Positions 18,839-56,989 of a stretch of DNA of 64,000 nucleotides are shown one piece after another. This stretch comes from Tubulanus polymorphus (taxonomy: Eukaryota; Animalia; Nemertea). Position 1 is the first letter of the stretch; the number at the start of each line of letters is the position of its first letter. Under the pieces are notes generated by a model. That model saw nothing but the letters and a program-made list of their open reading frames with translations, was not told where the DNA came from and ran no database searches. A program made the position numbers and the translations under genes. The DNA is taken from positions 61,001 through 125,000 of the forward strand of contig NW_027437442.1 of the NCBI RefSeq assembly GCF_964204645.1, read 5' to 3'.

Positions 18839-18877
<39 letters not shown>

Positions 18878-19316
18878 CGTTATTATAAAAGAATATCATA
18901 TATATATATGAAAATCAATATAAAAAATATGTATAATAAATGTAGAGTAAACAAACACACAGTGAATTCTTAAAAAGAATTAAAGATACTACAAATGTCA
19001 AATCTGTAGATTATAAATTTAAAAAGTTAAAACAATTTACGTTACATAAGAAATATTCAATTACAAATATTGAAACAATACTAATAGATATGGTAATAAA
19101 TTAGTTATTCACTTAGAATATATGAAGGATTGAAAGGAAATAAATATACATTCAGAACATATTTACCAGATAGATTTCATAGATTAGTGAAGATATTGAA
19201 GAATTATATTCAGGTGATTTCATATATAAATGTAAGAATAAAAAGGATGTCATGATATAGATTTCGAATAATATAAAATTTTTTGATAAGATTTTAATAA
19301 AACATTTATATAATAA

Positions 19317-23920: not shown

Positions 23921-24286
23921 AAATGAGTGATGATATTAAGAAAAAGCCTAGATCTGAAAAACAAATTGAATGGGCAAAGGAATTAGGTAAAAGATCTTCT
24001 GAATTAAAAAGAGAAAAGAAATTAAAGAAATTAACTGATGTAATTGAATCACAGAAATTATCTGATATTAATTCAAATGATAATCCATCTAATTCTTCTA
24101 AAACTGGAAGAAATAATATCTAATATTACAATTGGATTAATCACAGTAATTATATTCACTGGTGTAATATGTAAATTCAAATTTATTAATAATGATGATG
24201 ATGATAAACCAATTATACCAGAAAATAAATCAAATGACAAAATCATTGAAAATAAATCTAAATCATTAATAATGGATTGAAATAAG

Positions 24287-30651: not shown

Positions 30652-31140
30652 AGTAATAGGGGAAATGGGCTTTCAGGCCAAAGGTCGAACGGTCGAGCTC
30701 ATAAAAAATGAAAAATATGAAAATAATAACAATTTCTACTTGAATTAGTCGCGAAACTCATAAAAAATGAAAAATAATTCTCACACACTCGAATTTATTT
30801 TTCATTTTTACTCGCTAGAAAAAAGTGTGAGTAAAGTGTGAGTGACATAAATTCGAGCGTGTGAGAATTATTTTTCATTTTTTATGAGTTTCACTCCTAA
30901 TTCAAGTAGAAATTGTTATTATTTTCATATTTTTCATTTTTAATGAACTCGACCATTCAACCTTTAACCTGAAAGCCCATTACCCCTATTACTCTTAAAA
31001 TAATCATATACATGAATAACATTTAAATTGACAGATTATTCAATATAAAAGTATATATTTACAACATTATTTCAATATTCATATTTGTGTGAGTTAGATT
31101 TTTAAACATTAAAAGTGTTAGTAAAGTGTGATTGAAATAA
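30652..31140. repeat. Left terminal inverted repeat region, containing a 342-bp fold-back (30652-30993)
   Basis: The outer 34 bp match the right end, and about 30942-31140 is near-identical in inverted orientation to about 52872-53071. Confidence 0.92.
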
Positions 31141-32561: not shown

Positions 32562-33242
32562 ATGGAACCAGAACAACCACAAATTATCAATATTACAAAT
32601 AACACTGCTGGTGTTATAAATATATACTACAAGAAGTGTTCTAAATCTGAATTAGATAAATTAGCTATAACAGAATTTAGTAAGCGTAAGATTAGCAAAG
32701 ATGGTTTTCAATATTGTTGTAAAACTTGTTTTAAACTATATACCAAACAATATCGAGAAGATAATAGAGAAGCTTATAATGATTATATGACAGAATATAT
32801 GAGAGAAAGATATCAAACAGATCTTAATTTTAGATTGAAACAATGCTTAAGATCTAGATTAACACAATTATTCAACAAAGAAACACATTCAGAAACACTA
32901 TCTAATTTATTGGGTTGTTCACGTAAATTTCTTAAATCATGGATAATATATCAATTCGATGATAAAATGAATATAGATAATTATGGTGAATACTTTCATA
33001 TTGATCATGTGTTGCCGATTTCTAAATTTGACATGAGTGATGATTATAATAAGAAGGTAATATCGAACTGGAAAAATTTAAGACCTTTAGAAAAGAAGGA
33101 AAACATAATTAAATCTAATAAACTAGATTTACAGTTATATTTAGAACAGTTAACAAAGGCAAAGAAATTTATTGATCAATGGAACAATGATCCAAATAAT
33201 GAAGAATACGTTGAGGAATTTGATATCAAGGATCCGAAATGA
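32562..33242 (+). CDS. HNH-type endonuclease of the kind common in large DNA viruses
   Basis: Degenerate N-terminal zinc ribbon (KCSK...SKDGFQYCCKTC), LLGCS, FHIDHVLP...NWKNLRPLEKKENIIKSNK. Confidence 0.8.
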   Translation: MEPEQPQIINITNNTAGVINIYYKKCSKSELDKLAITEFSKRKISKDGFQYCCKTCFKLYTKQYREDNREAYNDYMTEYMRERYQTDLNFRLKQCLRSRLTQLFNKETHSETLSNLLGCSRKFLKSWIIYQFDDKMNIDNYGEYFHIDHVLPISKFDMSDDYNKKVISNWKNLRPLEKKENIIKSNKLDLQLYLEQLTKAKKFIDQWNNDPNNEEYVEEFDIKDPK

Positions 33243-33551
33243 CTTATCTGGACAGTTATAATTACTGCTCCTAATAGATAAACAAAACTAGTGAGATATC
33301 AAATAGAATTCAAATAAAATATATTAAAAAAACAATAACTTCAACTAGCCATTATTTCTATTTTAATTTCTGATATTTTCTTTTACAATTCTTTTCAAAA
33401 GAGAATACTTTATATCACAAATAAAAAATACTAAAAAAACAATAACTAATACTAAAATTCTTTACCTTTAACTAAGCTAGTATTAATCTAAAGAGATACT
33501 GGTATCATTTTATAATACTTATATTTTTTTTCGCTTTTTTCTCTAATATAA

Positions 33552-34156: not shown

Positions 34157-34714
34157 TGAGTTAAGAAAAAGGCTAGATCTGAAAAACAAATTAAATGGAC
34201 AAGAGAATTAGGTAAAAGATCTTCAGAATTAAAAAAAGCTAAGAAAAAGAAATTAACTGATATAAATGAATCACCTGATATTGATTCAAATAATAATCCA
34301 TCTAATTCCTAATGCTGGAAGTAATTATAAATTATATAATATAGCTGCAAAGCCGCGATAACGGGTTTTCTGCACAGTCTTAGAATCCTGTTCAACGGTG
34401 GATTTCAACAAAGCATTTGATAAGGCTCAATATCAGCCATTGCTAAACAGGCTATTAGGAAACAGTATCAATGATAGGTCGCCCAAATGGCTCAGCAGTT
34501 ATCTCTGAACGGAAACTTGTAACCGAAATCAACGGAACGCCTCATCTTGGAATGAGACGGTCTAACTAGTAGCGTCACGCAAGGTAGTATCCTAAGTCGT
34601 CTTCTGTTTAATGTCCTGACAAATGACATACACAGTAATCCAAAATATACCAGACCGAGTAAATTTCCAAAACGATCTTAACACACTGTTCGACCAAAAA
34701 ACTTAATGTTCCGA

Positions 34715-37700
34715 CAAAACCACGGGTGACAAAACCAAAATTATGAATTGTCGCGGGTGACAAAACCAAAATATTGAATTGTCACGGGCGACGAAACAAA
34801 AATAATGAATTGTCGCGGGCGATAAAACCAAAATAATGAATTGTCACGGTCGATAAAACCAAAATATTGAATTGTCGCGGGCGATAAAACCAAAATAATG
34901 AATTGTCGCAGACGACAAAAACAAAATATTGAATTGTTGCGTGCGACAAAACCAAAATAATGAATTGTCGCGGGCGACAAAACCAAACTAGGGGTCCAGG
35001 GACACCATGCTCACTTAAGAAGTGGTTTCAAATGCTCAACAATCTAACAATTTCAATACATAACGCCCTCTAGTGACCATATACAAAAACCAATGACCTT
35101 GAAACCCACCACAATCATAGAACACGTGAGCAGCTATGATTTTGTAATCGATTGTGATAACAAAATATGCCTCGTTACCAATTTAATATGGAAATACTAA
35201 GTTATTCTACTATTCAACGCCCCCTGGTGACCATATGCAAAACCCAATGACCTTATACAACTTTGCAATTGATCATAGTAACAAAATATGCCTAGGTACC
35301 AATCTTATAAGGAAATGCTAAGCCATTCTACTATACAACGCCCCCTGGTGACTATATGGAATAATTAATGTCCTTAAAAACTCACCACAATTATAGACGA
35401 TGTCATGAACTACAACTTTGCAATTTATCATGGTAAAAAAATATGCCTTGGTACAAATATAGCAATACTAAGTTATTGTATCATTCAACGCCCCCTGATG
35501 GCCACATACAAAAACCAATGACCTTGAAACTCACCAAAATCATAGAACACGTTATGGGCTACAACTTTCCAATTGAATATAGTAACACAATATGCTTAGG
35601 TATCAATTTAATGTGGAGAAACTTTTTCCCACCTACGAATGAGTACTGATGACACCAAGATGGCCGCCAATTGCGTCATAATTGGCTGATCAAAGATACC
35701 TGTCCCAGGTATAAAACATCCCTCTCTAAAGAATACCCATCAGCAATTGCAATGAGAAATGGCAAACCAGTAGGAAGCTACGTGACCTAGAATTCTGGCC
35801 AAAATTGACATTTTTGGGCACTAAAAAGGTCATAGGACTGCCATCTTGAGTCAGATCGACCCAATTTTCTTATGCTGATGGGCCTTTGGTAGATTCAAAT
35901 ATAAACCATATAAACGAAAGATCAAGGTAATTGATCAAAGCGTCTTCAAAATTTCCCACGAAAACTTCGAAAATGTTTAAACAGTGCTGATTTTGGCAAA
36001 CAACAATGGCTGCCAGTCGGCCATCTTGAATCTGACAGGGCCAGTTTTTGGGCTGACGATGTGTCTAGGGTAGATACATGTATAAACCAAATATCGAGAC
36101 ATTACCTTGAAGCGTCTTCAAAACTTCCGAAAATAACTGGATTCCGTCTATGGACGGACTAAAAGTGAACGCAATAGCCCGCAGGGACTAAAGTCCCAAG
36201 TGGACTGAAAAATAATTGTCGCGGGCGACAAAACCAAAATATTGAATTGTCGCGGGCGACAAAACCAAACTAATGAATTGTCGCAGGCGACAAAACCAAA
36301 CTAATGAATTGTCGCGGGCGACAAAACCAAACTAATGAATTGTCGCTGGCGACAAAACCAAACTAATGAATTGTCGCGGGCGATAAAACCAAACTAATGA
36401 ATTGTCGCGGGCGACAAAACCAAACTAATGAATTGTCGCTGGCGACAAAACCAAACTAATGAATTGTCGAGGGCGATAAAACCAAACTAATGAATTGTCG
36501 CGGGCGATAAAACCAAACTAATGAATTGTCGCGGGCGATAAAACCAAACTAATGAATAGTCGCGGGCGATAAAACAAAAATATTGAATCGTCGCGGGCGA
36601 CAAAATCAAAATAATGAATGGTCGCGGGCGATAAAACCAAAATAATGAATGGTCTCGGGCGACAAAACCAAAATAATGAATTGTCGCGGGCGATAAAACC
36701 AAAATATTGAATTGTCGTGGGCGACAAAACCAAAAAAAGAATTGTCGGGGTGACAAAACAAAAATAATGAATTGTCGCGGGCTATAAATCAAAATTAATG
36801 AATTGTCGCGGGCGATAAAACCAAAATAATGAATTGTCGCGGGCGACAAAACCAAAATGGTGAATTGTCGCGGGCGACAAAACCAGAAAGGTGAATTGTC
36901 GCGGGCGACAAAACCAAAATGGTGAATTGTCGCGAGCGACAAAACTAAAATAATGAATTGCCGCGGGCGATAAAACCGTAATAATGAATTGTTGCGGGCG
37001 ATAAAACCAAAATAATGAATTATCTCAGGCGACAAAACAAAAATAATGAATAATCGCGGGCGATAAAACAAAAACATTGAATTGTCGCAGGCGATAAAAC
37101 CAAAAAAGAAAATTGTCGCGGGCGACAAAAACAAAATATAAAACCAAAATAATGAATTGTCGCGGGTGACAAAACCAAAATAATGAATTGTCGGTGGCGA
37201 TAAAACCAAAGTATTGAATTGTCGCGGGCGATAAAACCAAAATATTGAATTTTCGTGGGCGACAAAACCAAAATATTGAATTGTCGCGGGCGACAAAACC
37301 AAACTAATGAATTGTCGCGGGCGACAAAACCAAACTAATGAATTGTCGCGGGCGACAAAACCAAAATGGTGAATTGTCGCGGGCGACAAAACCAGAAAGG
37401 TGAATTGTCTCGGGCGACAATACCAAAATGGTGAATTGTCGCGAGCGACAAAACTAAAATAATGAATTGCCGCGGGCGATAAAACCGTAATAATGAATTG
37501 TTGCGGGCGATAAAACCAAAATAATGAATTATCTCAGGCGACAAAACAAAAATAATGAATAATCGCGGGCGATAAAACAAAAATATTGAATTGTCGCAGG
37601 CGATAAAACCAAAAAAGAAAATTGTCGCGGGCGTGACAAAACCAAAATAATGAATTGTCGGTGGCGATAAAACCAAAGTATTGAATTGTCGCGGGCGATA

Positions 37701-38032
37701 AAACCAAAATATTGAATTTTCGTGGGCGACAAAACCAAAATATTGAATTGTCGCGGGCGACAAAACCAAACTAATGAATTGTCGCGGGCGACAAAACCAA
37801 ACTAATGAATTGTCGCGGGCGACAAAACCAAAAAAAGAATTGTCGGGGCGACAAAACAAAAATAATGAATTGTCGCGGGCTATAAATCAAAATTAATGAA
37901 TTGTCGCGGGCGACAAAACCAAAATATTGAATTGTCGCGGGCGACTAAACCAAAATATTGAATTGTTGCGGGCGATAAAACCAAAATAATGAATTATCGC
38001 GGGCGATAAAACCAAAATATTGAATTGTCGCC
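34715..38032. repeat. 31-bp tandem satellite (aattgtcgcgggcgacaaaaccaaaataatg) in two blocks, about 34715-34988 and 36212-38032
   Basis: Directly visible head-to-tail units, each with the ttgtcgc-gg-gcgacaa palindrome and no unique spacers. Confidence 0.95.
34988..36209 (-). mobile_element. Second Helentron-like element nested in the satellite, with ~120-155-bp internal repeats
   Basis: Interrupts the array. End hairpins ggggtccagggacacc and gggactaaagtccc; ggacggac micro-repeat; four internal units with cgccc(c/t)ctg/a motifs. Confidence 0.7.
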
Positions 38033-39002
38033 GAATGATGCAATCGTGAGTTGAAATAATACCTGAAAAAATCGATGCACAGACATTTACTTTATATATC
38101 TACTTGAACAATCGAGCCTACTCAGTAATATACTCAGTTTTTACGAAACCTGGAGTTTTTGTTTCAGAGAAATTTGAGTATCAGTATCCGATGCTATATA
38201 CTAACGTTAACGTTAGTTATCATCGCTCCGTCATGCTAAGTTATACATTTCATGTCAACCAGTATCTACGGGCAGCTGTACAGTGTGTACACACTATATC
38301 TGAATACGAGGCTGGAATAACAGGCTCACTTCACGTAGGTTCATGATGAGGAGAAACTCGCAGCTGATCCCCGGAACGACGATGTAGTAACACACGTCGA
38401 TTCGTCGATGTTTACGGCTCGACAGTGCTTTTAAAATCTAATGTAGTAAATTTCCAGTGTATCGGTAATATGATTTGATGAGGAAAATGGGCTATTGTTA
38501 AAATCACTGTTTGAAGACCACGACTGAATGTGAAGTCTGCGGCAATAAATTAGTTCATTTATACTTGAATTGATAATCGAAGTGACAGTCGGCCTGCGGG
38601 TTGATTTCGGGATGACGACTCGAAAAACATGTCGCCCCATTGAATGGGGCTAAATTTTCGATGTTTACGGCCCGACAGCGCTTTTGTAACGATGATTCGT
38701 GAAAAAACACGCGGGCTATTTGTAGATCTCAGTGAGCTGAACGATATTATATGGATTGTATATGAAACAGCGGTAAGGTAACAAAGCCTATGTTCTTTTG
38801 GTAAAAATAGTGTGGAAGAAAATAATAATAATAATAATCACGCGGATATCAATAGGGTTTTCTGTGAAATAACAGAAAACCCTAATTACAATTGGATTAG
38901 TAACAGTTATTATATTATCCGGTGTAATATATAAATCAAAATTCAAATCCGATGATAAAGATGATTGCAATGACAATATTATTATTAATGGATTAAAAGA
39001 AG

Positions 39003-40115
39003 ATGAAAAAAGAACAATATTTAAGAGATTTATATTATAACCCAGAAAGTGAAGTATCATATTCTAACGTTACAGAATTATGGGGTAAAATTAAATCTGA
39101 TAATGAAAATGGTGCCGTACGGCACCCACATGGTGATATAAAATATAGTGAATTAAAATCATGGTTACAAAATCAACCAACATATCAAATCCACAAGAAA
39201 ATCGATAAAACTTATTTAACAAGAAAAGTTATAGTTTCATATATCGATCAACAATGGCAAGCAGATTTAATTGACATGAAGAACTTAGAAGAATACAACA
39301 AAGGATATTTCTGGATATTAAATGTTATAGATATATTCAGTAGATACGCATGGTCAATTCCAATCAAAAATAAAACTGGTATAGAAGTTACAAATGCTTC
39401 TAAATCTATATTTAAAGAAGCTATTCCAGATAAGATACAATTTGATGAAGGTAAGGAATTTTATAACAAACACTTCAAAAAACTATTATCTGAAAACGAT
39501 GTAGATTATTTTTCAACACATTCAGATAAAAAAGCATCTATTATAGAAAGATTTAATAAAACATTGAAAACTAGAATGTGGAAATATTTTACTGCTAATG
39601 AAACATATAAATATATCGATGTATTAGATGATTTAGTGAAAGGTTATAATAATTCTAAACATAGTTCTATAAATATGAAACCTATACAAGCTAGAAAAGA
39701 AGATAATTCGGAAATAGTTTGGAATAATTTATATGGTGCGTTTGTTACACATGATTTCGGAGAACCTAAATTTAAAATAGGACAACACGTTAGAATATCT
39801 AAATATAGAAAAACATTTTATAAAGGTTATACCCCAAATTTTACAGAAGAAATATTCAAGATTAAAAAGATAATATTAACTAAACCTTTTGTTTATAAAC
39901 TAGAAGATCTAAAAGATGAAGAAATATTAGGTTATTTCTATGAACAAGAATTATCACTTGTACCAAACCCAGATGAAATAGAATACAAAATAGAAAAAGT
40001 ATTGAAAACAAAAACTCTTAAAGGAAAAAAGTATTCTTTGGTGAAATATAAAGGATACGATGATAAATTTAATGAATGGATTTTATCTAGTAAAATTAAA
40101 AGAATAAATGAATAA
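39003..40115 (+). CDS. Retroviral-like (rve) DDE integrase with a C-terminal chromo-like domain
   Basis: Intact 370 aa: WQADLIDM, IDIFSRYAW, QFDEGKEF, IERFNKTLK, YNNSKHSSI..KP, FKIGQHVRI, YKIEKVL...LVKYKGYD..FNEWI. Confidence 0.96.
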   Translation: MKKEQYLRDLYYNPESEVSYSNVTELWGKIKSDNENGAVRHPHGDIKYSELKSWLQNQPTYQIHKKIDKTYLTRKVIVSYIDQQWQADLIDMKNLEEYNKGYFWILNVIDIFSRYAWSIPIKNKTGIEVTNASKSIFKEAIPDKIQFDEGKEFYNKHFKKLLSENDVDYFSTHSDKKASIIERFNKTLKTRMWKYFTANETYKYIDVLDDLVKGYNNSKHSSINMKPIQARKEDNSEIVWNNLYGAFVTHDFGEPKFKIGQHVRISKYRKTFYKGYTPNFTEEIFKIKKIILTKPFVYKLEDLKDEEILGYFYEQELSLVPNPDEIEYKIEKVLKTKTLKGKKYSLVKYKGYDDKFNEWILSSKIKRINE

Positions 40116-40718
40116 AGATTTATTTATATTCGAACCGCATAATATGTTAGTTACTGGTGTAACCAATTGTGGTAAAACACATTTCATATTAGATTTGTTA
40201 GAAACTATTTATAAGAATCATTTTGATAATATAATATTATTCTGTCCTACTTATGAAATGAATAAAACATATAATAGAGATATAGTTAAGATAAAAAAGT
40301 TTATTATATTAAATCCTAAAACAGTAAAAGAAAATTTAGATAATTGTATAAAAATAGCAATTGATACTTATAAAGGATCAAATACATTATTTATTATAGA
40401 TGATTGCGCAAATTTACATGATTCAAAAGTTAGAGAAAGTGAGTTATGTTATCTAGCTTTCTCTGGGAGACATTTTGGGATAACAACATGGGTTTTAAAT
40501 CTAAATTTATTTCAATTGTTAAAGACTTTAGGGAGAATATAAGATTTCTAGTTTTATTTCATAACAAAGATAAAAAATCTATGCAACAATCATTGGAAGA
40601 AAATCAAATTATACCTACTGAATTACATGATGAATATATGAATAAATTAAAGAATAATAAAGGTTCAACATTATTAGTGAGATTACAATTTCCTTATGAA
40701 TATAAATTTATAAAATAA
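40108..40718 (+). CDS. A32/FtsK-like genome packaging ATPase (frameshifted near 40505)
   Basis: Walker A GVTNCGKT, Walker B FIIDD, SGRHFGITTWVL arginine-finger region; the C-terminus is in the 40446-40718 frame. Confidence 0.92.
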
Positions 40719-41276
40719 AATTTATATACCTATGTATTAGATACCCTATTAGATACCCTAATACCTGATACCCTATTAGATACCCTCATACCTGATACCC
40801 TATTAGATACCTTAAATACTTAAAACCCCCTTTTTTAAAATAAATATTATTTATACAATTTTCAACCAATTTATTTTTATTTTTTCAACTAATATATGAA
40901 TAAGTTTGAAAATAATAAAGGTTATTTATTATTACTGAGGTTTCAATTTCCATATGAATATCAGTTTATAAAATAAGATATTTTATGTATTAGATTGTAT
41001 TAGATATGTATTAGATATGTATTGGATACCTTAAATACCTTAAATACTTAAAACCCCCTTTTTTATTTACTATTATTTTATACAATTTTCAACCTTTATT
41101 ACTTTTTGAGTTAAATATAATTAATATCTTAATCACTGTCACTATCAGACCCCCCTAACAATTTATTCAAATTCTCTATTATTTTTATACTTATTTTTCA
41201 CCTTTTTTACCGCATCATCAATAGTTGTTTCATTGTTATGCTTATTCATCCAATCAAATTTATCATTATTTTCTAC

Positions 41277-41939
41277 TTAATGTTTCATAGAATCTTTATT
41301 AGTGTTTGCTCCTAATATTTTATTTACAGTGTTTGATCCTAATATTTCATTAGCATCGGTTAGATCTAATTCATCTTTATTAGGTGTTGCTAATAATAAA
41401 TCTTCATATATTTTTTCACCATTTACTTTTTGATTTGAAACAAACTTTGTAACATATCTAAATGGGTGTTCTATAAATTCTTTTAAACCAACACGTTCTA
41501 TAACATTATTTATATGTACCCTTGTATTCATATGTTTATTCCAATTTGATGTAGCGTTTGAAAATTCACTTTTACAATATCCACAATAATTTCTATTTTC
41601 ACTAACATTTAATATTATTTCATTATTAGATGTAGAAGGTATTACATTATTAGATGTAGTAGGTATTACATTATTAGATGTAGAAGGTATTACATTATTA
41701 GATGTAGAAGGTATTACATTATTAGATGTAGGAGGTATTACATTACTATCAATTACATTACTTAAATTATCAACAACACCACTTTTATTATTATCGATTT
41801 CTATTAGTTTAGTTTTATAAATTTTGAAAATAGGATCAAATATCAAAGCTATATTACAAGGTATTACATAATATAAACCATCATTATTTTCATGTGTATC
41901 GATGTATGGAATATGTTTATATACTTTACCTCCTTCCAT
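41277..41939 (-). CDS. Viral hypothetical protein with NNVIPSTS repeats and a C2H2-like finger
   Basis: 220-aa ORF; 24-bp tandem repeat ~41620-41750; YCGYC...HMNTRVH. Confidence 0.7.
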   Translation of the reverse strand: MEGGKVYKHIPYIDTHENNDGLYYVIPCNIALIFDPIFKIYKTKLIEIDNNKSGVVDNLSNVIDSNVIPPTSNNVIPSTSNNVIPSTSNNVIPTTSNNVIPSTSNNEIILNVSENRNYCGYCKSEFSNATSNWNKHMNTRVHINNVIERVGLKEFIEHPFRYVTKFVSNQKVNGEKIYEDLLLATPNKDELDLTDANEILGSNTVNKILGANTNKDSMKH

Positions 41940-41971
41940 TTATTATATAAATTTTTATTAAAGTTAAAATT

Positions 41972-43220
41972 TTAATACATAACACTATTTAATTGAGAAT
42001 TTACAATAATTAATTGCGCGTCAGATATAATATAAATGTGCATTTTGAAATTTTTGATTCCTTTATTCTTTGTCCTGAATAATTGTATTCCATCTTTAGT
42101 GTTTTGCAGTTTTTTTCCAGAACCATTTAATGAATTATTCTCTGTTGTTCTAAAATCTAACCATAATGCATATTTATTACCGGTATAATAATCAATTTGA
42201 TTAATGTTACAATTTTCAGATGATTTCACTTTTTCATTCATAAAATGTTTTCTAATTTCTGGCCATTGATCTATCATTCTCATTCCTTGACAAAATATTT
42301 TATTTGCTATTCCTTCGATAGTTATTTCTACTTTTATTATTTCAGGATTATAATAATTATCAACATTTATTGCGCCATTAGTATATGTTGGAATGGTAAA
42401 AAAATATTAATATACCTTTAATAGATCTTATTGGGAAGTTAATATTCTCATTAATAATTTCATCATTTGCATTAATAGTTACAGTTTTAAATTTATCAAT
42501 ATAATCATATAATAATGAAAATCCTTGATTGTATTGAGTTTGAATTATACTTGAAATATTTTCATCAGTTACTGTATCATATTCTAAACATATATTCGAT
42601 AATTTATAACTCATATCTTTATTAACGCTAGATATTACAATTTCATTTACAGGAGCAAATGTTATTTCGAATATAACGTCTTCTTGAATTGCGTATTTAT
42701 ATAAAGGTGCATTGTTATTTATCAATTCAAAGTCTAATGGAATTTTATATTTGCTTCCATATATACTTTTTATCAATTTATCTACAGCATTAGTTAATAT
42801 TGCGCTATTAGCTTCTGATCTTAATTTATTTTGGTTTTCTGATTGGATGCCTTGAAATATCATATTATTTCTATTTTCTTTAGTTAACCATAAATCTTTA
42901 TAATGCATAAATAAATTATAATCATCAAATGAGAAAACTGTTTCGGGACCAATCTTTATAGTTAATTTTTTAATCAAATATCTTCCAACATTATCAACAA
43001 CATAATTATTATTATTACCGGTTACGTTTATATCGGCTGATAAATAAGTACTATTTGGAACATAAAAAGTATTTTGTGTTAATCGAGGAATTCTAACATA
43101 TAAAGTTTCATCAGGATTAATATTAGAAGGGTTATGAGTAATTATATGATGTGATCTTTCTGCTTTAATAGCATTAGATATTCTATGATTCTTAGAAGGA
43201 TTGATATAACTCCCACTCAT
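41972..43220 (-). CDS. Probable major capsid protein (double jelly-roll), frameshifted near 42400
   Basis: About 415 aa when joined; beta-rich pattern (THNPSNI...LYVRIP, NVGRYLIKKLTIKI, YKIPLDF, ICLEYDTV, YALWLDFR) recognised as a polinton-like virus capsid type; position in the structural block. Confidence 0.75.
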
Positions 43221-43240
43221 TTATTTAACAAATAAATTAA

Positions 43241-44701
43241 TTATTTATTTTTTATCATGTTTAGTAACCCAAAAATAATTGCACTTACAACTGTAATTAA
43301 AAATAAAATAATATGTTCAGCAGCAAAGTTAATAATGTTTCCTGCAGATTTCAATATAAAACCAACAATTGATGCAATAACTCCTGGCAATGCAGCAGCA
43401 GATTTTTTAGATAGTTCCCATAAATATTTTGCTAATTTCTTTAAACCATCCTTAACTTTATCTTGTATAGAATTATCATTCGGGGGTTTATCTGGTTTAT
43501 TTGGAGTAGGAGTAGATTTTAAAGCATTTGATATTGCTAAACCAATTGTTGTAAATAACATAGTTACAGCTGTTAGAAATGAAAGAATTGTTATTCCTTC
43601 TAATTCAAATAACAATTTTATTCTATCTTTCAATGATATTTCAGAATTTGGTTTTATCAACAAATCTTTAAAAATAACTTTTAATCTATTAATATTATAA
43701 TCATATGATTTTAATAATAATTTAATTTCTTCTTTTTGTAATTCTATGTTATAGTCTAAATCATCTTTTTCTTTTTCTAAATACGCATTTCTTTTTTTAA
43801 ATTCGATTTCTTCAATAACTTTATTATCTCTATCTAATTTTAGTTGTTCCGATTCTTTTCTTGATTTAAATAATTCATCTTCTAAAGTTCTAATTTTTAA
43901 ATCTCTTATACTTTTATCATGCGCAATTTTATCAGATGCAAGTCTTATACTAATAATTTCTCTAATTGCTTTATCAGAAAATATATTATTTAAATCTTCT
44001 AATTGTTGATCTGTTGCATCAAGTAATCCATTTGGTAAAAGTTTTTCAATTGGAACTTTATTTGATTTAAGTTTACTAGTTTTGGAATTTATATTCTGTT
44101 CGGAGTTTCTTTCTGGTTCTAAATTATTATCGATTATTTTTAATAAGTCATCAATTCTTTCACTAAATACTCTTATATTATCATCTCTTTCTTCTTGTGT
44201 AACATCAGTTATTTCATTACTAATACTTATTCTTTTAATTATATCTGGTTTTAATTTTCTCAAAGTTGATTCCGCTAATATTTTATTTAGTTTTGTCTTT
44301 TGATTAGTGATATCAATATAATAATCATCTTTCAATTTATAATAATATTCACCATTTAAATATTTTAAATCTTCTACTAAAAATCTGGCACCTCTGTAAT
44401 TTATATTATATCCAGATCTTTCAAATGCACGTTGAAACTTATATATAAATTCTTTATTTTCAAAATCTCGACTCGATAAACCTTGATTTCCATTTTCAGG
44501 ATTTATTCTCGATTTAGTTCTTCTATCAAATTCATCTGTTAATGGGGCTTTAGAACCACTATCTGCTAAATTAGAATTATATGTTGATTCATTACCATCA
44601 TCAATATTAGTTTCTGCATCATTATAATCATCATCAATATATCCTTCATTATTATTTCCCATTTCTCCCATTTCATAATCTTCTCCACCTTCTACATCCA
44701 T
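43241..44701 (-). CDS. Coiled-coil protein with C-terminal hydrophobic/amphipathic helices (putative virion membrane or entry protein)
   Basis: Intact 486 aa: acidic N-terminus, heptad-rich middle, TM-like segment, Pro linker, then two further hydrophobic helices. Confidence 0.75.
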   Translation of the reverse strand: MDVEGGEDYEMGEMGNNNEGYIDDDYNDAETNIDDGNESTYNSNLADSGSKAPLTDEFDRRTKSRINPENGNQGLSSRDFENKEFIYKFQRAFERSGYNINYRGARFLVEDLKYLNGEYYYKLKDDYYIDITNQKTKLNKILAESTLRKLKPDIIKRISISNEITDVTQEERDDNIRVFSERIDDLLKIIDNNLEPERNSEQNINSKTSKLKSNKVPIEKLLPNGLLDATDQQLEDLNNIFSDKAIREIISIRLASDKIAHDKSIRDLKIRTLEDELFKSRKESEQLKLDRDNKVIEEIEFKKRNAYLEKEKDDLDYNIELQKEEIKLLLKSYDYNINRLKVIFKDLLIKPNSEISLKDRIKLLFELEGITILSFLTAVTMLFTTIGLAISNALKSTPTPNKPDKPPNDNSIQDKVKDGLKKLAKYLWELSKKSAAALPGVIASIVGFILKSAGNIINFAAEHIILFLITVVSAIIFGLLNMIKNK

Positions 44702-44717
44702 TTACATAATAAAAAAA

Positions 44718-46133
44718 TTAAAATTTAAAATATAATATTCCTCCGATTACAATTCCTATACAAGTTATAGCTAATTTAGTATTTTCATGGGATTTATTAT
44801 CATCATTTAGTTTAATTATATCATGTTGAATATCACCGTGTGGGTGCCATACGGCACCATTATCAGTTTTTATATTTTCTGATGTATTGTAATCTTTTAT
44901 TTTAGAATCATTATTTAATTTAATATTCTTAGTTTTAGTTTCTGTTGATTGAATATGTTTTTTATTTTTTTCACCTACCATTAATTTTGGAGCAGTAATA
45001 ATCTTTTTATTTATATCATTCAATCCAAATGAATTATTTATTGTTGCAGTTTTAATTAGATTATTATAACCAATTATATTTCCCATCTTTAATACTAAAT
45101 CATTAGAAATAATTGATAGATTAGGGCCTATACAATAATTTAGTCTTACATGTGATTTATCTAAATAATTTTGATATCTTACAATGTTTTCTGGAATCGA
45201 TCTATTTTTATCATTATGAATAGAATCTTCAAATGATACTTTGAATTGTTTCTGTGTATCAAATGATGTATTTAAATTTCCAATTATTGGGGATCTTGTG
45301 TCAACTTGCGCACCTAAAATACATATCAAATAAGTTCTAATAGATTGATTTATTCTTTTTACACCTGATTTTGTAAAACCTTCATTATTTTCTAAAATGA
45401 AATAAACCCAACCATTATTGTTTTCTTGTTTTAAATTATCATAAAATGTCGGTAATTTATTGAAATTTAATGTTTCTAAATCCTTAGTTTCTATTTTACC
45501 ATAACCTAATTTATTACTATAGATATTATACAAACTATTAGATGGTATGGGAAGTGCACAATATTCTCCAATCTTTTTAGGGCAAGGAAGTGATCTTATT
45601 GTTCCAATTTTTGTTCAAAAATCAGAATTATTTATATCTATATTAAATTCATTACAAATTTTATAAAACTTTGATAAATTAATATTATTATCTAATTCTT
45701 TAAAATACCTAGATCCTGGTAAAGCGCACTCTAATTCATTTAATATTATTCTGATTTGAAACTATGTATGAAATCTAAATAAACTTTGAATTAATTTATA
45801 TTTAGAATTATTCAAATGATCATTCCAACTAATTCCACAACCTGTTGTTGCACAATAAACTGCAAAATTTAATTGGTTCTGCCAATACTTCATATTAGAT
45901 TTTAATAACCATTGTTTTTCATCTTTCAATTTTTTAAAATTAATTGTATACACATGAAATATATTTTCCATCTTTGCATTAAAATTATTAGTTTCAGTTA
46001 CATAAATTTCTAAATTAGTAAATGAATCTAAAACTTCATTTCTATATGTAATATCTTTATTAAAATCTATTGCTGGAATATTATATTTAATTGATTTATT
46101 ATATTGGAAAGCTTTTGGAAAACTATCTACCAT
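44718..46133 (-). CDS. Conserved viral hypothetical protein with C-terminal TM anchor (disrupted; track ORFs 45762-46133 and 44718-45533)
   Basis: WQNQLNFAVYCATTGCGIS N-terminal block; coding-like sequence continues through the gap; terminal LAITCIGIVIGGILYF. Confidence 0.7.
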
Positions 46134-46157
46134 TTATTTAATTAAAAAATTAATAAT

Positions 46158-46584
46158 TTATTTATTCTTTTAATAATTTATCTTGTTCTTCAACTGTTAT
46201 ATGACCATTTAAACTTATTATATAATCTAGTGTATTCTTCAATTTATTAATTTCTTTTATATTAGTTTTAATTTTTTCTTTATTACTTTTTATATTTAAT
46301 TTTGAACTTATACCAGTTAAAACACTTGAACTTAATCCTTATACACCAATTGATATAGCTAAAGGTGTTAATGGGCTGAATATTGCTAGAAATGTTATTA
46401 CAGAACTAATTGTAACCGAACCACTGATAGTAAGATAATATATAATTTTACTTTTTAAATATTTTTTCTTTTTAACTTTTAAGTCACTTTAAAATTCTAA
46501 TATTTGTTTTTCTAAATATGTTTTTAATTTAGTTTTATTTATATCATGAGCAATAATATCAATATTATCAACATTATCTCCCAT
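46158..46584 (-). pseudogene. Small 2-TM viral protein gene with two in-frame stops (not in the ORF track)
   Basis: TAAATG start; reads MGDNVDNIDII...YYLTISGSVTISSVITFLAIFSPLTPLAISIGV*GLSSSVLTGISSKL... Confidence 0.65.
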
Positions 46585-46603
46585 TTATTTAGCAAAAAAA
46601 TTA

Positions 46604-47026
46604 CTAATTAGTAAACTTATACGCCACAAATATAACAATAACTGTTCCACCTAAAATCCAAATTATTTCATATTTCTTCTGTTCATTACTTGGGGTATAA
46701 TAATCTGATAATTTAGGTTTGTATAGATGTAATTTTTCTTTATTTGTTACTGCGTTATATAAACTCATTGCATCATCAACTGATTGAAAATCTCTATGTG
46801 AAATCTTCTGATCATATAATTCTTTATTGATGTAATCCATATAGTTTTGTCGTTTTTCTCTATATTCTTCCGCTGCTTTATTGTATTTCTCTAATGCTAA
46901 GTTATGTCTTTTTTGTTCTCCTAATGAACTATTTTTATCAATATGCTTAAATAAATAACCGCCACCAGTAAATGCTAAAGCGTTAACAATTGCCGATCCT
47001 ATAATAGTTATAATTGCAGAAGCCAT
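46604..47026 (-). CDS. Small viral protein with N- and C-terminal hydrophobic helices
   Basis: MASAIITIIGSAIVNALAFTGGGYLF...EQKRHNLALEKY...IIWILGGTVIVIFVAY. Confidence 0.8.
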   Translation of the reverse strand: MASAIITIIGSAIVNALAFTGGGYLFKHIDKNSSLGEQKRHNLALEKYNKAAEEYREKRQNYMDYINKELYDQKISHRDFQSVDDAMSLYNAVTNKEKLHLYKPKLSDYYTPSNEQKKYEIIWILGGTVIVIFVAYKFTN

Positions 47027-47050
47027 TTATTTAGCAAAAAAATTATGCAT

Positions 47051-47272
47051 TTATATGGGAGGAATATATTTTTGTTTTTCTAAATAATCAATAGTTAAAT
47101 TAGATAAAGTAACTGCTAATGTTAATTTTAAAATATCATTGATATCAAATCTATCAACATTAACACTTCCCATTTTGAATACTTTTTTTAATACCATTGA
47201 ATAACCAACAGTTCCAACTGATAGTAATGCTCCATTATATAATCCAGTTATTATCCACTTATTATCACTCAT
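47051..47272 (-). CDS. Small hydrophobic viral protein
   Basis: 73 aa, tightly packed, TAAATG start, two hydrophobic stretches. Confidence 0.75.
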   Translation of the reverse strand: MSDNKWIITGLYNGALLSVGTVGYSMVLKKVFKMGSVNVDRFDINDILKLTLAVTLSNLTIDYLEKQKYIPPI

Positions 47273-47614
47273 TTATTCATCAAAAAAATTACTATCATCA
47301 AAATATTTAGTTAACTTATTTATGATTAATTCAACATTTATTTCATTACTACTTTTATGATTATCATATATTTTGGTTAATATGTTTTTAATATCATCAA
47401 TAATTCCATCTTCGTTTAATTCATAATATTCTAAAGGTGATTTAATTAAATCAATTACTTTTTCTATATTATAATTTTCTTTATTTATCATTGATGCATT
47501 GTTAAATGATTTACTTTTTATATCAGTAATTACATCATTTAGTTTGATTCTCATTTCTTTACCATGTTTAAAATCAAACCCAAAACATATACTCGGTCCA
47601 ACAGTTATATTCAT
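47273..47614 (-). CDS. Viral hypothetical protein
   Basis: 113 aa, abuts its neighbour, TAAATG start. Confidence 0.7.
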   Translation of the reverse strand: MNITVGPSICFGFDFKHGKEMRIKLNDVITDIKSKSFNNASMINKENYNIEKVIDLIKSPLEYYELNEDGIIDDIKNILTKIYDNHKSSNEINVELIINKLTKYFDDSNFFDE

Positions 47615-47631
47615 TTATATAGTGAAAAAAA

Positions 47632-48390
47632 TTACTCTCTACATCTTATAACTAATTCATAAATTACAGGGAAATTATTTAAATCAATTAAGTATCCATT
47701 ATGATTTCTAATTTCTAATCTAAAATTATTAAAACGAGGAATGCATGGTTTGAAATCACATTCTGTTAAATTATAATTTTGCGTTCCAAATTCTTTAACA
47801 TTCTTCAATGGTAAAATGTTTAGTAAACCAGAATTACAAGTTATATCTTTAGTTGCTTCGAATGTTTTTGTAGGATCGATTAAATTGCAATAAATATAAA
47901 AATGCGTGTAAGGTATTAAGTTTGGTGTAACAGCATCAATATTTGTAAAAGATCTATCTGGAAGAATTCCTAACAGTTTAGCTATAGGTTTTTTTACCAT
48001 AAATTTATGTTTTTCACTATTAGACAACCTTATCTTTATTCTATCAGAACTATCACTTTTTAAAAATCTAATACTAAACCCGGAACTACTACCTAATTTG
48101 TGCCAGGCTTTTCTATTAATTTCTTGTGCTAATGTATCTAAATTATATAACCCCGGTTTTAAATATATATAGACCCATGAATCTATGTGTCTATTAAAAA
48201 CTAAAAAGGCTCTATGTTCAATAGTTTTATTCGATATATTATAAAAAGAATTGCATAAACTTATATTAACTAATTTTAAATCAACACAATTCTTAAATTC
48301 TCTATCTAATTGTACTAGTAAATTATGAGATTTATAATTTGTAAGTTTTCTTGAATCAACAAATATTCTGTATTCTTTTAATTCCGCCAT
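47632..48390 (-). CDS. Probable minor capsid protein (penton, single jelly-roll)
   Basis: IFVDSR start, LVNISLCNSFYNI, LKPGLYN, AKLLG, FYIYCNLI, LEIRNHNGYLIDLNN: the pattern typical of polinton/virophage pentons. Confidence 0.78.
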   Translation of the reverse strand: MAELKEYRIFVDSRKLTNYKSHNLLVQLDREFKNCVDLKLVNISLCNSFYNISNKTIEHRAFLVFNRHIDSWVYIYLKPGLYNLDTLAQEINRKAWHKLGSSSGFSIRFLKSDSSDRIKIRLSNSEKHKFMVKKPIAKLLGILPDRSFTNIDAVTPNLIPYTHFYIYCNLIDPTKTFEATKDITCNSGLLNILPLKNVKEFGTQNYNLTECDFKPCIPRFNNFRLEIRNHNGYLIDLNNFPVIYELVIRCRE

Positions 48391-48404
48391 TTATTTTACA
48401 TATT

Positions 48405-48758
48405 TTATTCGAAATCTATTTCGTGATGCCCTTTTTCATTCTTACCTTTGTATACGAAGTAGAAATCTCCAGAACATAATTCTTCTAGATCTTCACTTGA
48501 TAATCTATGAAATCTATTCGGTAAATATGTTCTGATTTTATATGTATTTCCTTTGAATCCTTCATATTCTAAGTGTATAACTAATTTATCTCCATAGTTA
48601 TTAGTAACTGTATCAATATTTGTAATTAGATATTTCTTATGGATTGTTAATTCTGTTAACTTTTTGAATTTATAATCTACAGATTTTACATTTGTTATAT
48701 CTTTAATTCTATCTAGAAATAATTTGTTGTTCTCACTGTGTGTTTGTTTACTCTCCAT
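48405..48758 (-). CDS. Small viral protein, possibly an OB-fold ssDNA-binding protein
   Basis: FKKLTEL...YLIT..TNNYGDKLVIHL...TYLPNRF...FVYKG; homologue in copy A. The fold assignment is a guess. Confidence 0.6.
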   Translation of the reverse strand: MESKQTHSENNKLFLDRIKDITNVKSVDYKFKKLTELTIHKKYLITNIDTVTNNYGDKLVIHLEYEGFKGNTYKIRTYLPNRFHRLSSEDLEELCSGDFYFVYKGKNEKGHHEIDFE

Positions 48759-48787
48759 TTATAATACATATTTTTATTAAAATTTGA

Positions 48788-51700
48788 TTAACACGTTAGA
48801 ATTCTTTTCATTATCTCGTTCTCTTTTGTTTCTTCTCTTTTAAATTTTAAGTATTCATCTAAATTACAACCATAAGCAACTGTATGAATTCCATCATCTA
48901 AAATATATCTTTTATCATCAAATGGGTTTAGACTTATCTTTTCAATTTCTTCAATAAACATTTCATGATCTTCAGATCTTAAACATATCATCTTATGTTT
49001 TCTAACTTCTTCATTGAATATACAATTGATGTAATCTTTGAAATGAATATTCTTTTCTACTACACTTTTGGTTATTCCTTTTAACTTTTTAGCTTCATGT
49101 TCTTTAGTTTTATATGAATACATTTTAGATCTAATACCTATGAACTCTATCATTTCTTCACCACCTAATTCACGGGAACTTTTTTATTATCATTGCTAAA
49201 CAATTCATGATCTTTAGGATAGTTACTAAAATCAAAATGATGTTTTAATGTTTTTAAATCATCAGTTATGTTATATGTTTTTATCTTTAATATGTAAGAA
49301 TCTGTATCAAAGTATAATATTTCTATATGTTTTTATCCAAAAAGTGGTTGTAATACATTATAATAGAATTCATACATTAGTAATTTTGATAATTCTAAAA
49401 CTGAAGCGCCAACATAGATTGGTTTATTAAATTTCATTGATGTTCTTCTCATTTTAACTGCGGCTAAATTTTCATCAAATATTCTGTTACCTATAAATTT
49501 AGGATATGTTTGTAAATGTCTAATTCTTTTACCATTACTAACTAACTCAATATCATTTCTATTTCTAATATTTTCACAAGTCTTACCATAGAATGCATTG
49601 TTCATTAACTTGAAGAAATCATTCTCGAAATCAGTTTTAGCTTCAGTTCTCTGTTTGGTGTTAAAATCTATATATTTTTCTAACCACTTAGATTGACTAA
49701 ATGAAATATATCTATGTACTTTTTTTAGAATCATTCCTTGTTTTAGATAAAACTTTAACATTCTGTAATGTACTACATAATTATATTTATCTTCTTGAGT
49801 TACCATTAACTTTTCTGTATGAATAAAATTTTCGGGTTTAATTCTTTTTTGATAATTTGATAATTCTTCATGAGTAACGGTTTTATGTTCGGGACAGTAT
49901 GCTAGATTTCTAGATTTAAATTTAATATGTTCAGGATATTCTAAATCTACAACAAAGAAGTAACCAGTATCTGAATCATCTGCAATATCTAGAATTCTTT
50001 TCTTCCAATCAAATTTATCATTATTTTCATTCTGTAAAACTTCACTTATTTCAAATACTCCATAAGGTTGTGGTTCCATCATTGCCCAACCATACAAATT
50101 ATTTGCATCTATATATAATAACTTATCCAGGGTTATCATTTACATTGAAATATCTATCACCTAATACACCTGAAACTCCTCCTCTTATAGATTTTTCAAA
50201 TAATAATAATTGATCTATATTTGTTAACAAATCCATTTTTATATCTGTAAATTTTAATCCACAATCCCATGTTAAACCTGGGCTAGAATAACAATGACAA
50301 GGATCAATATTGAAATATTTTAGGTTTACATCTCAAAACCTTTCGAATATATCGGTTAATAATAATACATCTGATTTTAAATATAAATCTACTAATTGTC
50401 CATGATTTTCTATTTTGAAATGATTCCAAATATTCAATGTTCTATTATATACTTCATCTTTAACATATTCATTTTTTAATTCATCATAGAATTGTTCTTT
50501 TAATAATTCAGTTATATTGAAATCATTATGATTTTTATAGAAAGAATATGGAATTGCTCCTTTATATCTCATTAATTGAAAATCATCATTATTTGGGTAG
50601 TGTTGTTTTAATATTTTTAATTCATCAGCAACTAATGATTTTGATAAGTTATCTAATGAACTATTTAAAAATCTATATGAATCTATAAATCTTAAACACC
50701 CAAATTGGAATGATATATAATTCTCAGATGTTTTAGCTAACATTCTAAATTTATAAGTTGGTATTTTATCTTTTGATCTATTTGAATTTAATCTTTCTAT
50801 TTCATTATTAATTTCTTCTATTTTATGGCATAACTGTTTGATGAATAAATGTGCATCATATCCTGATAGATTATGAAATATAACTGGTACAAAATTAATT
50901 TTCTTAGCTTGTAAGTTACAATTCTCATGTGCAGTGCCTCTAAACTTTCCATTCAAATGATCATGGTCTCTTACTTTTTTATCTCTAAAATTAAATATCT
51001 TTTCACAATAATAACATTTATCTGCAAACGCAAATTCTTCTTTATCTTCTTCTGTCATTATAATTTCTATATTTGTATTCAGTAATTTACTAAATCTTAT
51101 TTCATATTCAATTAGTAAGTCACAAAAATGATTGACAACATTTTCATTTCTGTAATTACAATATTCACTTTCAATTAGTTCTGGATAATCAGATTTAATA
51201 TATAACCCGAAAGCAGCAGCTGATTGATGAATCTTTTTAATAGTATTTGTTTTTGGTGGTTCATCTGAAAAATCATTTTCATTAGAATTTAATTTCTTTC
51301 TTTTATAATATATTTCTTTTCTATCTTGATCAGTTAATTCTTTATTTAATGATTCAAAATCTCCATATATAACAAATGGAACTTTATCTTTGTAATCTTA
51401 TTTTTTGAATTCTAATATTTTATCTTTTTCATTTGGTAAAACTAATTTACAATAATCATGATTTTCACATAATTGTTTATGATTTAATAATGTACTTTCA
51501 TTACTGAATCTATGTAAACATTTTCTACAAAGATATATTTTATGGTGATCACTTTCTGTTCTAAAGAATAAATCTATTTGTTTAATCCACATATAATGAT
51601 TCTCATAATATAGTATATCTATAACATCGTTTGAATCATAATCTTTTGATAGATATAAAGGTTCTAATGTATAATGTTTTATATTGTTACCTTTTGTATT

Positions 51701-52813
51701 TGGTAATTTGATTAAATCAAATACATTTATTCTTAAATTATTATCTCTTTCTATTTTTGGGATGTTTTTAATTATAACAGGATACTTATCTATCTTATAA
51801 TTATTTTCAAATTGTTTATAATTTGTTAATCTATAAGTATGTTTATTATAATCTTCAACTGGGTTTAAGCAACTTATTATAGCCTATAGAAAACATTTAT
51901 CATCTTCATTTTGTACATTTATTACAGCATTAGTTTTAAATGGTAGTTTAATATAACTTGATGCTTCAATATCTGGTTCTTTATAATATGATACATTATT
52001 TTCATCAATTGGTTTTGATTTAGTTAACTTATTATATTTTGTGTTATAAACATGTAAAGTCATAAATATTATTTCATCAAATATTAAACCAGATCCTTCA
52101 AAATATTTCTCTTCTATGTTAGTTTTTACTTCATTATAAGATTTATCTTATTTATCATCTATATGTTGTTTTGAAATAATATGTTGTGAATGAGAATTTA
52201 TATTATATATTGGTTTATCTTCAGATTTTATGAATTTAACTTTAACTGATATACTAATTTTAGGATATTCAACATCAGTTATTATTTTTATTATTTCTTT
52301 CATATTATCTAAAAGTTTTTTATTTTCTTCTAATGTTTTTCCTTCATGAAATTTAAACTCGATAGCTGCTGGACCAGTATCACTTTTATATGCTTCGGTT
52401 ATCTCTATATCTTTTTTATTATCCAATAAATTAATATATTTTCTTACATCTTCCATGTATGGTCTTTTATTGTTTAATTTATTTTTTATGTTTTTAATTG
52501 TCTTCTGTTTCTTATCATTATCTTTATCAAAATAATCTTCACCTAAGATATCATTATTGATATTTCTAATATGATTTTTAGATTTCAAATGTTCTTTATA
52601 ATATCTTTTATCACTGAATGATTGATTACATGTATCACATTTGTATGTTTCTTTTTCATTGTTTAATTCATCTAATTTAGTTTCTAATATATCATCTTTA
52701 TATTCTAGTTTCAATTTATTCTCTAAATGTGTTTTAGTTTTATTGTGTCTTGCTTTTTGGGATTTATCTATATTGATTTTACATGTGGAACAGTAGTACT
52801 TATTTGCTTCCAT
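48788..52813 (-). CDS. Protein-primed DNA polymerase B with N-terminal C2H2 fingers and an endonuclease VII-like domain (several stops/frameshifts)
   Basis: Exonuclease motifs YGDFES, FHNLSGYD, YLKSDV; RDHDH...GTAHENCN; polymerase motifs IRGGVS, YIDANNLYGWAM, FKLMNNAFYGK, YFDTDS (~49300), IRSKMYS, KLKGI. Confidence 0.96.
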
Positions 52814-52871
52814 TTTGATATCAAATTTTTTTTTTAAATTGATTTTAGAAGTTCAATGATTTATATCATGT

Positions 52872-53296
52872 ATTATTTCAATCACACTTTACTAACACTT
52901 TTAATGTTTAAAAATCTAACTCACACAAATATGAATATTGAAATAATGTTGTAAATATATACTTTTATATTGAATAATCTGTCAATTTAAATGTTATTCA
53001 TGTACATGATTATTTTAAGAGTAATAGGGGTAATGGGCTTTCAGGTTAAAGGTTGAATGGTCGAGTTCATTTAAAAACAAAACATTAAAAGTAATTTAAA
53101 ACTATAATATATTTTCATAACCGTGTGTATTTCAGTTGAATAATAGAATAATTATTATTATTAAAATATATTTGATTATATGAATTTGTGTATTTTAAAT
53201 AAATCAATTGGTCGCGGAGCGGAGCGGTAGCGAAGTGGAGCGACCAATTGATTTATTTATTTACCTTTGGCCTGAAAGCCCATTACCCCTATTACT
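52872..53296. repeat. Right terminal inverted repeat region, with an inner terminal-motif copy at 53020 and a 20-bp stem hairpin
   Basis: agtaataggggtaatgggctttcagg at 53020 faces the true terminus at 53263-53296; stem 53196-53215 / 53240-53259. Confidence 0.92.
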
Positions 53297-56200: not shown

Positions 56201-56989
56201 ATGCCGACGACATTTGCATTTTTTGTCCGTCTGCAAAGGGTCTACAAACTCTAATGAATATTTGTAATAACTATGCAAGCCAACATGACATAACATTTAA
56301 TATAGATAAAAACTCAGTGTATAGTTTTTAAGCCATCTGGCTTTGTTTTCTATGGCAATGTTGTGCCGCCAGTGTATATGAATAATTGCCTCATAAAATA
56401 TGTAAATGATGTAAAATATCTAGGATATTACATTTCATCTGCTTTATCTGATGATGCAGACATGATTTATCAAACCAAATTGCTCTGCATCCGTGCAAAC
56501 TCTATTATCCGTAAATTTTCTTCCGGCAGCAATGTTGTGAAAAACAAACTGTTTTCTAGCTATTGTACGTCTTTTTATAGTATGCCTATTTGGTCAAATT
56601 TTTCTAAACAAACTTACAACCGCTTACGTGTGTGTTTCAATAATGCGTTCAGGCGCCTGCATCATTTTGAACCGGTGTAGTGCTGCCGCAATGTTTTTCA
56701 ATAATCATGTGAAAAGCTTCGGCGAGATTTACCGCAAAATAGTCTACTCTTTTAAATCCGGTATTCTGTCTCATCCAAACACTCTTGTTCAATCGATCTC
56801 TAGCTCAATTTCATTCTACTTTTCATCACTATTTAAAACATGGGACAGTATACTGTACACACAATAAAGTCGTAACCTTAAAACAGTGCTATGTATTTTG
56901 TATATTTGTCATTATAATATTTTTGTAAAAAAATTTGTTATATGGACATATGTCTGAAATAAAACATAATAATAATAATAATAATAATA
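53297..56989 (+). mobile_element. 3' part of the CR1/L2-group LINE: rest of ORF1, fragmented APE-RT ORF2, AATAAA and (AAT)n tail
   Basis: APE motifs ATLNC, LLQEHW, GRPYGG, MGDFNA, WLDH, SDHRP; RT motifs NYRPIAL, QFGF, LDASKAFD, GVRQGGILSP, YADD, KYLG; tail at 56958-56989. Confidence 0.93.

Follow-up and report, generated by a model that had tools for sequence, protein, structure and literature searches.

A 27-bp hairpin element at polymorphic ATAT sites in a Maverick/Polinton family of the nemertean Tubulanus polymorphus

Introduction

Several kinds of small hairpin element have been described from organelle genomes, among them the mitochondrial double-hairpin elements (DHEs) of Allomyces and the hairpin elements of sponges, or RHEs (PMC2800124), and the small inverted repeats of placozoans (PMC7813641). 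A related case is the GC cluster GC42 of yeast mitochondria, for which endonuclease-assisted mobility has been proposed but is unproven; its flanks are co-converted, and the mechanism was left open (PMC4478555). Here we describe a 27-bp hairpin element that occurs twice in a 64,000-nucleotide stretch of DNA from Tubulanus polymorphus (NCBI RefSeq assembly GCF_964204645.1, contig NW_027437442.1, positions 61,001 to 125,000 of the forward strand; hereafter the window), in both cases in frame inside genes of a Maverick/Polinton, a nuclear virus-like transposon.

Among bacteria, the Rickettsia palindromic elements, of about 100-150 bp, offer another point of comparison. Like them, the element described here is a palindromic repeat that lies in frame in what are predicted to be surface loops of unrelated proteins, but at 27 bp it is only about one fifth of their size. 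In architecture and behavior it works like mitochondrial GC clusters and DHEs, but we do not class it as one of them. With DHEs and RHEs it shares a very short, GC-rich, gene-less form, two adjacent hairpins (the second of which is weak), a distribution both within and between genes, and sporadic presence or absence at orthologous sites of close relatives; unlike them, and unlike GC clusters, it resides in a nuclear replicon rather than in an organelle. The Allomyces elements lack flanking duplications (PMC2800124), whereas the ambiguous AT beside this element can be read as a duplication or as part of a blunt insertion. As with GC42, a palindromic GC island stands in AT-rich DNA and leaves clean empty sites, and the 2-bp target duplication, AT here, has a counterpart in the AG of GC42 (PMC4478555). 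The two differ in length (25 versus 42 bp) and genome (nuclear versus organellar), and the Maverick element is found mostly in frame within genes whereas most GC clusters are intergenic (PMC4478555).

Mavericks/Polintons are defined by terminal inverted repeats, a 6-bp duplication, an rve integrase, a protein-primed DNA polymerase B (pPolB), and an A32 ATPase (bioRxiv 10.1101/2023.08.22.554363). A term search of the accessible text of Polinton papers found no mention of internal hairpin micro-elements, the palindromes in one of them being terminal, and a literature search that left most subscription papers and all supplements outside its reach returned no report of such elements inside Mavericks. 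Hairpin micro-element behavior, known from organelles and bacteria, appears to be undescribed in Mavericks. As shown below, the 27-mer is a gene-less, derived insertion that is present in some copies and absent from others at several ATAT sites in a single Maverick family. On balance, we think it probable that it spreads by template-switch copying.

Results

The first copy of the element lies at 39111-39137 on the plus strand, where it encodes residues 37-45 (GAVRHPHGD) of an intact integrase; the second lies on the minus strand at 44858-44832 and encodes GAVWHPHGD near the C-terminus of a gene piece with a hydrophobic tail. A first-pass annotation made from the letters of the window alone had described the two as 25/27 identical, in the same frame and both in sense orientation, with a perfect palindrome in the first 16 nt of the integrase copy, and all of this was borne out; both begin at a codon boundary of their open reading frames. 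They differ by two C/T changes, each at a CpG position in a predicted loop. At up to three mismatches these two copies are the only matches in the window (0 of 100 shuffles contained any match), and relaxing the scan to nine mismatches yielded nothing more than echoes of these two sites that stem from their own palindromes. The insert length of 27 bp that had been reported is exact, but its boundary slides by 2 nt; it is equally well described as a 25-bp core (39111-39135 in copy 1, with the second copy spanning 44832-44858 in all) plus a duplicated AT within ATAT. Five of the six frames of the element are open. Rfam gave no matches over 38400-53400, and ARAGORN reported no genes.

In the minimum-energy fold, a predicted hairpin with a 6-bp stem (39111-39126, plus strand) is directly abutted, without a spacer, by a second with a 3-bp stem (39127-39135, plus strand). 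The element also contains a 6-bp direct repeat, at 39109-39114 and 39130-39135, that is its own, being present at both window sites and at none of the empty ones. The sequence GGTG stands at either end, in direct orientation. Terminal inverted repeats are absent and the ends do not resemble the Maverick tips; the element lacks the repeats matching an autonomous partner that characterize miniature inverted-repeat transposable elements.

The integrase of another Maverick copy in the window (copy A), about 90% identical over aligned columns, lacks exactly these 27 bp at about 24393; the empty orthologous site reads gaaaat/ataaaa (ATAT at 24392-24395, plus strand). In DNA alignments, copy A and the related loci L001, L002, and L003 have no insert at the integrase site, and L005 has none at the second site. 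In the second gene, exactly nine residues are missing from all five close homologues. The element peptide, in any of six frames, was found in none of 249 fetched proteins, the exact 25-letter pattern matched nothing in viral_contigs or metagenome_contigs, and none of the 81 related loci holds an approximate copy at up to 6 edits. Seven viral matches to a 17-letter part stop at the first hairpin, look like terminators or chance, and were set aside. Copy A and every close outgroup examined have empty sites; the 27-mer is therefore a derived insertion, as had been proposed at the outset, and not an ancestral motif. Nor is it a common host repeat, because read flanks match Maverick DNA wherever they could be placed and the host DNA of the window (27 kb) contains no copy. 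We give practically no credence to the view that the element is an assembly artifact, a repeat common in the host, or a motif that was ancestral and disappeared from copy A: nothing was found in its favor, and the element occurs, with natural variation, in raw reads and contigs of two studies while being missing from the outgroups and the host flank.

Reads show that the element is polymorphic. In run X6 from the same species, 857 reads were surveyed across 39040-39210; the family is high-copy, with a depth of several hundred in 1.9 Gb of this run. The runs used derive from two studies, one possibly being the origin of the window itself. The integrase site occurs as filled, empty, -21, and +6 alleles, and the indels listed from X6 are multiples of three in six of six rows: -27 (7+4 reads), -21 (68+4), and +6 (21+7). 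A further 26 reads end loosely, as an empty allele would. The -21 allele, common at 72 reads, deletes the span between the 6-bp direct repeats and leaves 6 bp behind. These 6 bp could be viewed as the excision footprint of a cut-and-paste mini-transposon moved by the Maverick integrase, especially since the core is flanked by a direct repeat of the same length as the Maverick duplication. That repeat, however, is part of the element, which leaves a target duplication of at most 2 bp, and it is because of this duplication length that we reject integrase-driven insertion. Together with the missing terminal inverted repeats and the dissimilarity to Maverick tips, this makes the cut-and-paste explanation very unlikely.

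Reads also point to further sites in other copies of the family. Five groups of loose ends listed from X6 come from other sites (48, 68, 33, 29, and 26 reads), and in all five the AT is kept beside the element. Two groups (33 and 29 reads) had no confident placement; the others, compared by eye, match two ATAT targets that are empty in the copy analyzed here. One target, at 44872-44875 on the minus strand, is in the same gene as copy 2 and 15 bp upstream of it; its junction, between 44874 and 44873, is at a codon boundary and is filled in other copies according to the groups of 48 and 26 reads (loose ends 39105 and 39143). The second is intergenic (33296-33299, plus strand), 55 bp behind the stop of an endonuclease VII (EndoVII)/HNH-like open reading frame (ORF), and its junction, between 33297 and 33298, is filled according to 68 reads and a contig end from X3 (loose ends 39109 and 39145). 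The junction is AT/AT at all four sites. Thus the original description of an element in viral genes holds for both window copies, but the element is not confined to genes, one read-placed site being intergenic. The three placed coding sites are all in sense orientation and in phase 0, and the chance that three coding sites share one class is about 0.04 by a hand calculation from phase counts. Copy B, the Maverick that carries both window copies, has 581 ATAT junctions over the part compared, and the sole other one with 6+6 identity to the integrase flanks is that between 44874 and 44873. Separately, contig ends in X1-X3 resemble the tail of ORF 41277-41939, suggesting that other copies may carry the 27-mer near there; we did not count this as a site. 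The same ORF contains a tandem 24-bp in-frame repeat at 41592-41772.

Related Mavericks carry hairpin families of their own. L001 and L003 are metagenome contigs whose integrases are 83% identical to that of the window and which show 98.8% identity to each other over their overlap. They contain six copies, five of them coding, of an unrelated 37+2-bp double hairpin. A zinc-finger-like gene holds three of these and pPolB a fourth; the fifth is in the tail of the nuclease ORF, and the sixth comes directly after the capsid-like gene of L001. The five coding copies use one common frame, and their peptide ends in FPEHSS or FPEHSF. Although the six are divided two to four between the genome strands, each is oriented with its local gene. 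The best of them consists of 37 bp between two ATs and folds into two abutting hairpins (z -5.0; range for the family -5.0 to -2.5), and the pPolB copy falls in a 45-bp gap relative to both window polymerases. An 18-mer of this sister element had no viral matches. In L006, there are three further, different abutting double hairpins, one of which is an integrase loop insertion, and no abutting double hairpin of this kind was found in L002 or L005. A scan of 81 loci for double hairpins returned 8 against 2.3 expected, with a concentration in L003 and L006, a lower bound because the L001 copies were missed. Counted individually, the window has two matches, L003 one, and L006 three, against none expected (3 resamplings each). 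We also noted GC-rich hairpins and abutting double hairpins inside ORFs of L006 (119-147, 628-650, 915-941, and 2092-2140) and single GC-rich double hairpins in more distant loci (L031 343, L048 2107, L078 406, and L079 1927).

These sister families bear on the possibility that the element originated once and was then spread by nothing more than the usual ectopic gene conversion between the hundreds of integrated copies, the hairpins playing no part. The high copy number apparent from the read depth would suit such a process, as would the 12/12 flanking bases that one new site has in common with the integrase site. The same abutting double-hairpin architecture nonetheless appears in three unrelated lineages, and the ends are precise at all sites, and we consider this explanation decidedly improbable.

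The first-pass annotation had offered two interpretations, a frame-preserving micro-mobile element and a dispersed cis-signal. The polymorphic sites and the parallel sister family speak for the first and weaken the second. A functional viral cis-signal, such as a transcript 3'-end hairpin, a pause site, a nicking site, or a packaging mark, might have been copied around and tolerated in protein loops. Consistent with this, every copy of readable orientation follows gene direction on both genome strands, the intergenic copies lie just behind stops (that of the EndoVII/HNH-like ORF and, in L001, that of the capsid-like gene), and several coding copies are in C-terminal tails. Such a signal is hard to reconcile with sites that are polymorphic within one family, two of them empty in copy B, and with sister lineages that use unrelated sequences or, like L002 and L005, none. 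Furthermore, copies at integrase codon 37 and in mid-polymerase would, as 3'-end signals, shorten transcripts. We regard a cis-signal as unlikely.

The element is carried by copy B, a 22.6-kb Maverick/Polinton (30652-53296) with inverted-repeat tips identical at 34/40 positions and a perfect 6-bp target duplication, GTGAGC, within the 5-8-bp range typical of the group. It encodes an rve integrase (Pfam rve, E 7.8e-9), a packaging ATPase (Pfam Pox_A32, E 1.8e-9), and, in pieces, a pPolB (DNA_pol_B_2, E 2.4e-5, below the curated cut-off) for which pPolB homologues were found. An ORF at 42378-43220 may be capsid-like; neither it nor its 415-aa homologue in L001 had a Pfam match. Copy B is an integrated Maverick flanked by host repeats, not organellar DNA, and has named relatives in nematodes and insects.

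The flanking host DNA contains reverse-transcriptase-like fragments (54035-56680, their identity judged from motifs), which raises the possibility of an RNA intermediate copied by a host reverse transcriptase of the long interspersed nuclear element (LINE) type. An RNA route has been proposed for the analogous yeast GC42 and Allomyces elements (PMC4478555; PMC2800124), and the strict sense orientation of the copies speaks for it. The element has neither a poly(A) tail nor a long target duplication, its ends are identical at all sites, and a host enzyme would hardly explain confinement to Maverick DNA; an RNA route is accordingly quite unlikely.

Two candidate nucleases are encoded by copy B itself. 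The EndoVII/HNH-like ORF (32562-33242, plus strand), open over 226 aa, matches endonuclease VII (PHROG 1035, E 6.3e-14), with no significant match in PDB and none to Pfam HNH; its homologue in L002 has a weak Pfam HNH match (E 0.0055). It is the natural candidate for a nuclease that would make the break. The second candidate is an EndoVII-like domain in a broken pPolB piece (50333-51058, minus strand). In both lineages, an element copy is found at or just behind the 3' end of the EndoVII/HNH-like ORF, which is suggestive only. The position of this gene shifts among loci, as a homing-endonuclease-like gene might: in L002 (1296-1811) it has another position and the opposite strand compared with window 32562-33242 and L003 4079-4849, and it is not evident among the ORFs of L005. 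One could tentatively suppose that the hairpins are lineage-specific micro-transposons with cores of 3n-2 bases (25 and 37 bp), inserted at ATAT with a 2-bp duplication by the Maverick EndoVII/HNH-like nuclease. Under this supposition, which we hold possible but rather doubtful, a 3n-2 core plus a 2-bp duplication would make every insertion frame-keeping by construction.

The integrase that carries copy 1 (39003-40115, plus strand) has 370 aa and combines an rve domain with a chromodomain. In an AlphaFold2 model (mean value in the predicted local distance difference test, pLDDT, 73.6), residues 37-45 fall in the stretch that joins helices 23-35 and 48-56, and pLDDT is low at residues 38-40; the model thus predicts an in-frame insertion in a surface loop. 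Of the 43 homologues in which the region can be seen, 10 have this loop lengthened by 5 residues or more (45 of 70 homologues were listed, two of them without the region). A second integrase loop, at residue ~97, contains unrelated insertions of 8-11 residues in P0008, P0013, and P0020. The carrier of copy 2 had been described as a transmembrane-anchored ORF. It does have a C-terminal hydrophobic tail, but it is not a whole gene: the 271 residues at 44718-45533 (minus strand) are the 3' piece of a broken gene of ~440 aa, the 5' piece of which is ORF 45762-46133.

Other features of the Mavericks were noted in passing. Copy B is split just upstream of the integrase by ~4.4 kb of host-like DNA, mostly a 31-bp satellite (34400-38780). 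Its terminal regions, 30652-30993 and 52868-53296, each hold their own inverted repeat, and a switch of strand at 53132-53255 is seen in 336 X6 reads, a hint that the Maverick termini may be invertible or form hairpins. Two further, more decayed Maverick copies occupy window 1-2000 and 18727-27100 (~70% and 81-90% identical to B), and copy A has an L003-type gene order. In the related Maverick L005, an ORF at 10340-10981 has a GLIGAGKTT P-loop, a motif from which we take it to resemble a deoxynucleoside kinase. The pPolB homologues P0139 and P0165 carry Pfam PF14890, and P0139 also PF14528, presumably intein and LAGLIDADG families.

Discussion

In regard to how the element moves, we favor copying rather than excision. 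A nicked or stalled strand of a replicating Maverick may switch template onto a filled copy by way of short flanking homology, or the copying may take place during break repair. As the protein-primed polymerase displaces a single strand, the abutting hairpins could fold on that strand and would stall the polymerase or be nicked, and the AT duplication might arise from a 2-nt staggered break at AT, most plausibly made by the Maverick's own EndoVII/HNH-like nuclease, or from 2-nt microhomology. The sense strand is 45% A, and the homology offered by this A-rich, codon-periodic strand would for the most part preserve frame and orientation, with selection removing the rest. The -21 allele may have arisen when the two 6-bp direct repeats slipped against each other. 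Since each junction is common to many copies, it seems sensible that insertions took place first in active elements and that amplification came afterwards.

A number of observations weigh against template-switch copying of a hairpin element. The additional sites were placed by eye from read ends, among those loose ends that were listed. The intergenic site shares only ~2 bases with the left flank of the integrase site, so long homology would not be needed everywhere. The AT duplication fits a staggered cut, microhomology, and a blunt 27-bp insertion equally well, and no enzyme, intermediate, or new insertion was observed. As for the fold, the centroid structure lacks the second hairpin, whose stem measures just 3 bp, and fold z-scores of the window element are modest (-1.4 to -2.3). 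Confinement of variation to loops shows no structural selection, because the two changes that separate the window copies are CpG transitions as well; among the variants listed from reads, some alter the stem. Lastly, duplication within the gene may account for the three copies that L001 has in a single gene.

The movement of GC clusters, DHEs, and Rickettsia-type palindromes has long been unresolved, and here the same behavior is found in a replicon of about a dozen genes. The system is tractable: it offers two candidate nucleases, and one host genome contains many integrated copies, which allows a direct tally of filled, empty, partly deleted, and extended alleles. Short oligonucleotides could serve as substrates for assays of the candidate enzymes. 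The element also explains odd loop peptides of Maverick proteins and provides sub-lineage markers for dating Maverick bursts. If it were a micro-transposon inserted by a nuclease, it would itself parasitize a parasite and rank with the smallest of mobile DNAs, with a mobilizing enzyme identifiable within a genome of about a dozen genes. If instead it is copied during repair or replication, it would be to a virus-like genome what the selfish hairpins are to mitochondria.

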